Shown: piece after piece, positions 20,359 through 20,631 of the stretch
How the letters are laid out: each line of letters begins with the position of its first letter
Numbering within the stretch: the first letter of the stretch is position 1
Assembly: GCA_041577295.1 (NCBI GenBank)
Contig: JBFGJG010000025.1
Location: forward strand, 1,416-65,415
Length of the DNA stretch: 64,000 bases
Direction: 5' to 3'
Source of the DNA: Gemmatimonadales bacterium
GTDB taxonomy: Bacteria > Gemmatimonadota > Gemmatimonadetes > Gemmatimonadales > GWC2-71-9
The notes under the pieces: generated by a model
What the model saw: the letters and a program-made list of their open reading frames with translations, nothing else
Told to the model about the DNA's origin: nothing
Databases searched by the model: none
Position numbers and translations under genes: made by a program

Positions 20359-20631
20359 TTACCTGCGGCTACCTGGCGAACCTGGTAAGGTACCCGGTGG
20401 CTCCGAGCCTGGTGGTGCCTGCGATCCGGGGGCCGACCCTCCCAATCCAGGTCCACCAATGGCCGATCCGGTCCACGGGCCGTGCCCCTCCTTACCTGCG
20501 TGCTTGTGGCTGGTGCTCTTCCCCTGTCCTACCGCTTCCAGCGGTGCAGCCATACTGTGGATGACGGGTGCCGCATACACCGCCCCTTTGGCAAGGCGCC
20601 GAAGAAACGCGCGCCGGTCTTCCTTTGTCAT
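20359..20631 (-). CDS. 90-aa candidate RiPP precursor / twin-arginine small protein
   Basis: GGAGG RBS and ATGA overlap with methyltransferase stop; MTKEDRRAFLRRLAKGAVYAAPVIHSMAAP leader then Gly/Pro/Ser-rich tail; C-terminal part of track ORF 20359..21048. Confidence 0.75.
   Translation of the reverse strand: MTKEDRRAFLRRLAKGAVYAAPVIHSMAAPLEAVGQGKSTSHKHAGKEGHGPWTGSAIGGPGLGGSAPGSQAPPGSEPPGTLPGSPGSRR

Follow-up and report, generated by a model that had tools for sequence, protein, structure and literature searches.

A candidate linear phosphopeptide precursor in Gemmatimonadales whose leader combines twin-arginine and YxxPx[VI] motifs

A 90-residue open reading frame stands last in a row of enzyme genes in a 64,000-nucleotide stretch of DNA from a Gemmatimonadales bacterium (the window), and raises the question of what it encodes and how its product would leave the cytoplasm. 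The gene, its operon, the division of the peptide into a leader and a core, and the families and motifs of the accompanying enzymes are established. The peptide, encoded by the terminal gene of the operon, is probably the precursor of a linear RiPP that would gain phosphate and methyl groups in the cytoplasm and subsequently leave through the Tat pathway, of which the usual cargo is folded proteins. It is likely an undescribed cousin of the LPP linear phosphopeptides. The features of the locus are collected in Table 1.

Table 1. Positions in the window of the precursor gene, its parts and the neighbouring enzyme genes.
Feature	Position	Strand	Basis or remark
Precursor peptide gene, 90 amino acids plus stop	20359..20631	-	Translation from 20631 to 20359; family profile
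Leader, residues 1–35: Tat-type n-region, hydrophobic stretch with the RRE motif	20527..20631	-	Putative signal peptidase I site after Gly35
Twin-arginine motif RRAFL, residues 6–10	20602..20616	-	Conservation in 202 homologs
YxxPx[VI] motif YAAPVI	20560..20577	-	Y19/P22/I24 at -17/-14/-12 from the predicted cut
Predicted core, residues 36–90, disordered, Gly/Pro/Ser-rich	20362..20526	-	
STSHK patch, S39–K43: candidate phosphorylation at S39/T40/S41, candidate methylation at H42/K43	20503..20517	-	[ST]-x-K enrichment; analogy with Ser3 of BsfA and LppA
GGAGG ribosome-binding site	20636..20640	-	Within the methyltransferase 3' end; AGGAGG at 20641–20636, 4 nt from the ATG
Terminator-like 11-bp hairpin, 3' of the peptide stop	20314..20338	-	Consensus match only
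SAM methyltransferase, PRMT fold (Rossmann and beta-barrel), C-terminal three-helix tail, TTG start	20628..21797	-	
Stand-alone PqqD/RRE	21784..22074	-	Homologous to TbiB1, TfuB1 and the 9x8z RRE (LppB)
NTP_transf_5 (PF14907) nucleotidyltransferase	22119..23237	-	
HprK-like peptide kinase	23234..24067	-	BsfK catalytic motif in exact register

The precursor frame is read from the minus strand; on the plus strand, the reading frame across the same positions is broken by a stop. It forms the 3' end of a longer frame with a GTG start (20359–21048, 229 amino acids), the 5' part of which overlaps the methyltransferase gene in a different frame. Its own ATG shares the sequence ATGA with the methyltransferase stop codon, a four-nucleotide overlap. 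A four-nucleotide overlap with the upstream gene is found in 24 of 76 homologs and a four-letter match to a ribosome-binding site in 56 of them. The nesting, the GGAGG and the ATGA described in an earlier note are thus all present, on the minus strand. Five terminator-like sites were found where 3.2 are expected, and the hairpin behind the stop codon is weak evidence by itself. The translation contains DRRAFL (residues 5–10), YAAPVI (residues 19–24), GKSTSHKHAGKEGH (residues 37–50), five P-G-S/T units (at residues 68, 74, 79, 83 and 86) and a terminal RR. It matches no Pfam or NCBIfam family, and in the ESM Atlas it leads to unnamed clusters only (at 0.90, with low recognition). A search with the single sequence gave one homolog, and the family emerged only through the neighbourhoods of methyltransferase homologs; a profile of the leader then retrieved 654 clusters at E<=0.001. 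Codon differences in the leader are mostly synonymous (pS 0.58–0.93, pN 0.15–0.25) in 12 homolog pairs, picked for pN below 0.25 out of 40 examined. The frame is a real gene with homologs, more than a chance occurrence.

Of the 654 clusters, the best 150 were considered; for the family comparison, 228 sequences gave 220 unique ones, of which 215 were in gapless register (five were dropped) and 202 remained below 80% identity. The register filter required a proline at +16 and allowed R, L or D, followed by R or K, at the twin-arginine positions. Identity among the 202 homologs is 46% in the leader and 12.5% in the core, the leader being conserved and the core variable, as in the pattern that the earlier note had named as a check. 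A core as tolerant as this suggests, at the level of sequence, a portable module for phosphorylation, methylation and export. The same leader also precedes longer, possibly folded bodies in two sequences (P0263, of 138 amino acids, and P0259), a hint that it may be able to serve proteins as an export signal.

In a low-confidence single-sequence model the core is predicted to be unfolded, while residues 3–20 form one amphipathic helix. Near the core start, the pattern [ST]-x-K occurs in 81 of 202 homologs against 28 in local shuffles, with other spacings less enriched, and a PW..P[PG] tail, of which the window peptide lacks the canonical form, in 95 of 202 cores against 5 in shuffles; the z-value of about 13 for [ST]-x-K, like other shuffle z-values, is an overstatement because related sequences are not independent. 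More loosely, a serine or threonine followed by lysine, histidine or methionine is found near the start, and nearly all cores (200/202) contain Ser or Thr. The basic S-x-K/H patch of the window peptide therefore has counterparts in the family, and the proposal that Ser/Thr near the core start are kinase sites is supported by the [ST]-x-K enrichment. The methylation sites proposed alongside it fared unevenly: arginine is unsuited as a general target, being absent from 64 of the 202 cores, while lysine and histidine are plausible in individual peptides and not general (54 cores are without Lys, 14 without K/R/H and 5 without K/R/H/M). The PGS repeats and terminal RR, real enough in the window peptide, were discarded as features of the family, since 15 of 202 homologs have at least two PG[ST] units and three have a terminal RR. 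A C-terminal serine as in paeninodin was likewise rejected (7/202). Four or more His plus Met residues are present in 85 of the 202 cores, repeats of Met/Gly or of His abound in many, and some contain Cys pairs; such cores may point to metal binding.

The leader carries two sets of signals. In the YxxPx[VI] motif, tyrosine is conserved in 92% and V/I in 94% of the 202 homologs, and the proline in 79 of 79 sequences of a free alignment; a second leader proline is kept in 80% of the 202. The spacing from the predicted cut, Y-17/P-14/I-12, is that of the lasso precursor BsfA, in which YxxPxL lies at Y-17/P-14/L-12 and Ser3 is phosphorylated by BsfK, strongly boosted by the RRE (accessible text of PMC10368454). 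A YxxPxV leader and a polyphosphorylated Ser3 are likewise described for LppA (accessible text of PMC13381572). A pattern search of the source genome yielded 22 Tat-like N-termini, of which that of the window peptide alone has [YW]xxPx[VIL]. On the side of the enzyme, the RRE profile has TbiB1, TfuB1 and 9x8z as its best PDB matches. An asparagine (62/62) and an aspartate (49/62), whose aligned counterparts in LppB fix the Pro and Tyr, are kept, with Ala or Thr, and no Phe, where the pocket phenylalanine F74 of LppB aligns. This comparison favours YAAPVI as a YxxP motif of the type bound by lasso RREs.

The second set is of the Tat type. The twin arginines are conserved in 99% and 98% of the 202 homologs, followed by phenylalanine (89%) and leucine (83%), and the consensus RRxFLK is matched in the form RRAFLR in the window peptide. 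At the predicted cut site, Ala or Gly (90%) precedes Gln (68%), a small residue followed by Gln being present in 151 of 202; in distant phyla the leaders end in AxA-type sites. Of 65 homolog leaders, 25 match the Tat signal model TIGR01409 at E<=1 (best 7.7e-06) and 32 match TIGR02811 weakly (best E 0.0012), while the window's own leader matches no Tat model. Its best 13-residue hydrophobicity (Kyte-Doolittle) is 1.3, compared with a median of 1.6 for the Tat-like N-termini of the genome. TatC is encoded in the source genome and in five of five other hosts, which says little because 11 of 14 control genomes have it too. The source genome contains a single signal peptidase I match (PF10502), on a different contig. 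That RRxFL and the small-residue/Gln end persist in several phyla, and that no dedicated protease or exporter was found in the flanking ORFs scanned, makes Tat export likely, and the dual character of the leader proposed in the earlier note is supported by comparison of the homologs.

The five genes are all on the minus strand, in the order kinase, nucleotidyltransferase, RRE, methyltransferase and peptide. Of 99 kinase homologs, 81 likewise align exactly with the BsfK motif. The best NCBIfam match of the kinase is TIGR04352 (50.9 bits, cut-off 200), and the RRE matches TIGR04353 weakly (23.5 bits, cut-off 35). Downstream (16017–20229, minus strand) lies a block encoding an FAD oxidoreductase, VTT, DUF547, GT2 and DUF2064 proteins; the oxidoreductase recurs in 13 fetched loci, and on this ground the block is regarded as local synteny and not as part of the cassette.

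The structure model of the methyltransferase is confident (pLDDT 88.9) and resembles PRMT6, PRMT3, CARM1 and HMT1 (Foldseek E about 1e-26; HMM E 2e-41). The SAM-binding arginine is present, the first glutamate of the double-E motif (E108) is found in 34 of 34 sequences, and the adjacent Asp is near-invariant. The position of the second glutamate is variable, and G/A-S-W replaces THW, so that Thr and His are gone. Lacking that glutamate and that histidine, the enzyme has a PRMT fold and falls outside the PRMTs proper. Between very close methyltransferases, the core lysine changes to histidine or methionine (L019, L035, L020). Covariation of methyltransferase motifs with core type was considered and dropped: on a quick tree of 68 rows, 21 changes were counted against 33 after shuffling, and one Met-type clade and kinship explain the pattern. 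The idea that the C-terminal tail is a second RRE was also rejected (hhalign probability 32%, the tail lying outside the match in several homologs). Distant homologs, at 31–34% identity, lie in lasso-type clusters with a kinase and a nucleotidyltransferase and with precursors that have no twin-arginine leader. The company of kinase and nucleotidyltransferase ties the methyltransferase to the phospho-tailoring module, and the absence of an RR leader there argues against the leader arginines as a general methylation target. Two such clusters, L016 (G055, 6561–12275, minus strand) and L017 (G044, 1741–9742), contain a cyclase-like gene, a lasso-like precursor, a kinase and a nucleotidyltransferase, with an ABC exporter in L017; all lasso model scores in both are under the cut-off.

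Loci around methyltransferase homologs were fetched from genomes (73) and metagenomes (80, the best of 123), with five regions from relatives. The named homologs are mostly from Gemmatimonadota, and the iterated leader profile identified 97 peptide ORFs in the fetched loci. The five-gene operon is conserved and, judged by sequence, found again in dozens of genomes. The peptide adjoins the methyltransferase in all 42 Gemmatimonadota-titled loci with at least 400 nt downstream (45 were fetched), and the 38 with enough upstream DNA contain the RRE (38), the kinase (36) and the nucleotidyltransferase (at least 32, nucleotidyltransferase counts being lower bounds since the profile missed copies detected by Pfam in L089 and L158). 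Elsewhere, the peptide is adjacent in 6 of 25 loci of other phyla and in 34 of 49 metagenome loci. The gene order of the cassette varies while its membership is constant, and the chromosomal contexts are unrelated. In the reverse search, 17 of 401 genomes of a phylum sample match the peptide; among the 20 matches listed (21 were tallied), 16 directly adjoin a methyltransferase, two are near a kinase, one is a degenerate second copy by a contig end and one showed no cassette genes within 13.8 kb. Three genomes from loci without an adjacent peptide (L066, L074, L072) have a stand-alone, His-rich homolog elsewhere (3/3 checked), and the two Acidobacteria genomes checked (L057, L064) gave no peptide match. 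At 14 loci, 62 of the 97 flanking ORFs were scanned, and neither a peptidase of family S26, a lasso cyclase, a B2 peptidase nor an ABC exporter turned up; the flanks in the window likewise gave no SpI-like peptidase or MsbA-like exporter. A peptidase of family S51, a rhomboid and an RND pump were each seen at single loci.

Several loci depart from the common arrangement. The stand-alone homologs L214, L215 and L216 have His-rich, Pro-tailed cores without Lys, Arg or Met, and are far from the enzymes. Loci of the Neomarinimicrobiota type (L066, L070–L076, L078, L083, L085) contain a trio of RRE, kinase and methyltransferase inside an exopolysaccharide locus, with a conserved protein of about 120 amino acids (a single membrane helix, a GSAVRxET motif, no Pfam family) about 1.5–1.8 kb upstream of the PqqD gene. 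In L029/L102 the methyltransferase gene is split by about 1.5 kb and the downstream peptide is intact, while L052 and L093 have tandem precursors. A single ORF joining methyltransferase and peptide (P0219) looks like a frameshift artefact and was set aside.

From these elements a pathway can be proposed. The PqqD/RRE protein would, very probably, bind the YxxPxI of the leader, and the HprK-like kinase would then, with nearly the same assurance, phosphorylate or polyphosphorylate S39, T40 or S41, of which S41 is favoured by the S-x-K pattern. The nucleotidyltransferase may optionally place a sugar or a nucleotide on the phosphate. The PRMT-fold enzyme would methylate the core, here most likely at K43 or a neighbouring histidine, a choice of target held with rather less than even confidence. 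Finally, the RRE would release the leader, RRxFL would route the peptide through Tat, and housekeeping signal peptidase I would cut after Gly35, a step that we consider likely; the product would be a periplasmic peptide of 55 residues led by glutamine. As to its role, we can only guess at a periplasmic or envelope phosphopeptide, possibly metal-binding in view of the His/Met-rich cores, or linked to exopolysaccharide. A more far-reaching version, which we consider less likely than not, is a class of RiPPs whose single leader doubles as RRE handle and Tat signal; in it the RRE acts as a Tat proofreading chaperone until tailoring is done, the methyltransferase has a changed specificity, and the Tat system and signal peptidase of the host replace a dedicated exporter and protease. 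The RRE would then cover the hydrophobic stretch and hold the precursor until kinase, nucleotidyltransferase and methyltransferase had acted; the methyl group might go to Lys, His or Met, to the phospho-adduct, or to the twin arginines as an export gate.

The export step and the methyl target are where other readings compete most. The same modified peptide might never enter the Tat pathway, the RRxFL helix docking the kinase or the methyltransferase; completion would then fall to a protease or transporter encoded away from the cluster, or to neither. The failure of the window leader to match a Tat model, its modest h-region, the unfolded core and the amphipathic helix modelled with low confidence at residues 3–20 would all suit such a course. 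However, RR-x-F-L-K and the small-residue/Gln end are kept in several phyla, LPP and Bsf leaders do their work with no RR, yet depend on a dedicated peptidase and ABC exporter, which were not found in the flanking ORFs scanned here, and an RR leader is lacking in related clusters of lasso type whose methyltransferase has this fold; we consider the Tat-free course unlikely. Concerning methylation alone, and compatible with the rest of the pathway, the methyl group could be placed on the phosphoryl or nucleotidyl adduct of Ser/Thr, or on the leader arginines. These are the sole near-universal targets, the fold with its invariant first Glu and near-invariant adjacent Asp is that of PRMTs, and the enzyme accompanies kinase and nucleotidyltransferase even in lasso-type clusters. 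Yet no other signal in the core is as strong as [ST]-x-K, the homologs linked to lasso clusters do without an RR leader, and the second Glu and the His that PRMTs use for guanidine methylation are missing, which leaves this choice of target possible rather than probable.

Two further readings would deny the peptide its role as the substrate of a complete local pathway. It might be a small Tat-targeted accessory or decoy, like the TAT target of formate-dehydrogenase regions described by TIGR02811, with the cassette modifying, for example, an exopolysaccharide. The TIGR02811 matches, weak as they are, and the cassettes of several phyla in exopolysaccharide loci without an adjacent peptide point that way, but an RRE is a binder of peptide leaders, YxxPx[VI] sets this peptide apart from the genome's other Tat-like signals, the link between peptide and cassette is close, and all three genomes checked from the group without an adjacent peptide, Neomarinimicrobiota included, have a homolog elsewhere; we think an accessory or decoy very unlikely. 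Even more improbable, to the point that we give it hardly any weight, is a lasso precursor completed in trans by a distant cyclase and B2 peptidase. YxxP, RRE, kinase and nucleotidyltransferase are indeed lasso-type parts, and the genome has eight matches to the Asn_synthase family. None of these is on this contig, though, no PF13471 match is over the cut-off in the source genome (91.5% complete), and no lasso leader model matches any of the 65 leaders, whereas the control precursors of L016/L017 are matched by one; there is no Thr at -2, and Asp or Glu at a ring position (7–9) occurs in 28 of 202 homologs, below the 36.7 of shuffled sequences.

The preferred reading, a linear phosphopeptide exported through Tat, can be compared with systems already described. 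By its sequence features the precursor works like those of the LPP and Bsf systems, yet it belongs with neither the LPPs nor the lasso peptides. The LPP cluster of Paenibacillus alginolyticus (lppA-K-B-S-D-N), reported in 2026 to make linear polyphosphorylated peptides (accessible text of PMC13381572), shares with the present one the absence of a cyclase, a stand-alone RRE, a kinase resembling HprK, an NTP transferase, a YxxPxV-type leader, a variable C-terminus, a serine near the core start and cleavage of signal-peptidase type (predicted here), and some LPP clusters lie in capsule loci. In contrast, LPP clusters are described there as restricted to Bacillota and as having their own SpI-like peptidase LppS and MsbA-like ABC exporter LppD, and the LPP consensus YxxPxVLxHQxIxFETxxS differs from the logo found here after the motif (S/T-L/F/M-A-A-P-x-x-L-x-A/G-Q); the twin-arginine signal and the PRMT-fold methyltransferase as a core gene are particular to the present cassette. 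The LPP main text (PMC13381572) makes no mention of twin-arginine, Tat, methyltransferase or Gemmatimonad. With the Bsf cluster of Bradymonas sediminis (accessible text of PMC10368454), the Y-17/P-14/-12 register, the motif of the RRE-boosted kinase and the nucleotidyltransferase are shared; a Bsf methyltransferase (BsfM) gave 0 matches in the accessible text of that paper. In pseudomycoidin the nucleotidyltransferase puts a hexose on the phosphate (accessible text of PMC8498205). Unlike Bsf and paeninodin or pseudomycoidin, the cassette described here has no macrolactam cyclase, B2 peptidase, Thr/Ile at -2 or ring Asp/Glu, and adds a Tat signal and a methyltransferase. HPr-rel-A (kinase TIGR04352, PqqD TIGR04353) includes the best kinase match, but both scores are far below the cut-offs, and its models include neither this methyltransferase nor this precursor.

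For export, the nearest parallel is found in the bufferins, RiPPs exported by the general pathway Sec (accessible texts of PMC11626156 and PMC12452194), the precursor N-terminus being a general export signal that is cut by signal peptidase (accessible text of PMC11626156). In bufferins, though, the pathway is Sec and not Tat, modification can do without the signal and the chemistry is that of MNIO enzymes on cysteine, whereas in the present leader the signal itself contains the RRE motif. The methyltransferase shares the Rossmann fold and beta-barrel, the SAM-binding Arg and the first double-E Glu with eukaryotic PRMTs (PRMT6, CARM1, PRMT1), but differs in the second Glu, in the G/A-S-W that replaces the Thr and His of THW and in its extra C-terminal three-helix tail. 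Neither a twin-arginine RRE precursor nor a PRMT-fold RiPP enzyme was found in the literature searched, which lay outside most subscription papers and the LPP and Bsf supplements.

The same genome contains a second cassette (L175, C81:1339–4515, about 1110–3177, plus strand; L213), in the order peptide, PqqD, HprK-like kinase and nucleotidyltransferase, in which no methyltransferase was found and the short twin-arginine peptide has WxxP in place of YxxP. The C81 cassette and that of the window form a natural pair for studying how tyrosine and tryptophan leaders are discriminated. At a third locus (L176, C74:6909–10106), a 441-residue protein with a C-terminal PqqD domain, beside two genes of the Asn_synthase family, has a probable acyl-adenylate ligase, judged by its sequence, as its neighbour.

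For an orphan cassette of kinase, nucleotidyltransferase and RRE that recurs in Gemmatimonadota and in several poorly known phyla, a substrate, a predicted cut site and candidate modified residues can now be named. A defined peptide substrate is also offered for a bacterial PRMT-fold methyltransferase with an active site unlike that of the eukaryotic enzymes. Should the proposed pathway prove true, Tat would serve RiPPs in the way that Sec serves bufferins, and the motif for the RRE would be part of the export signal itself.
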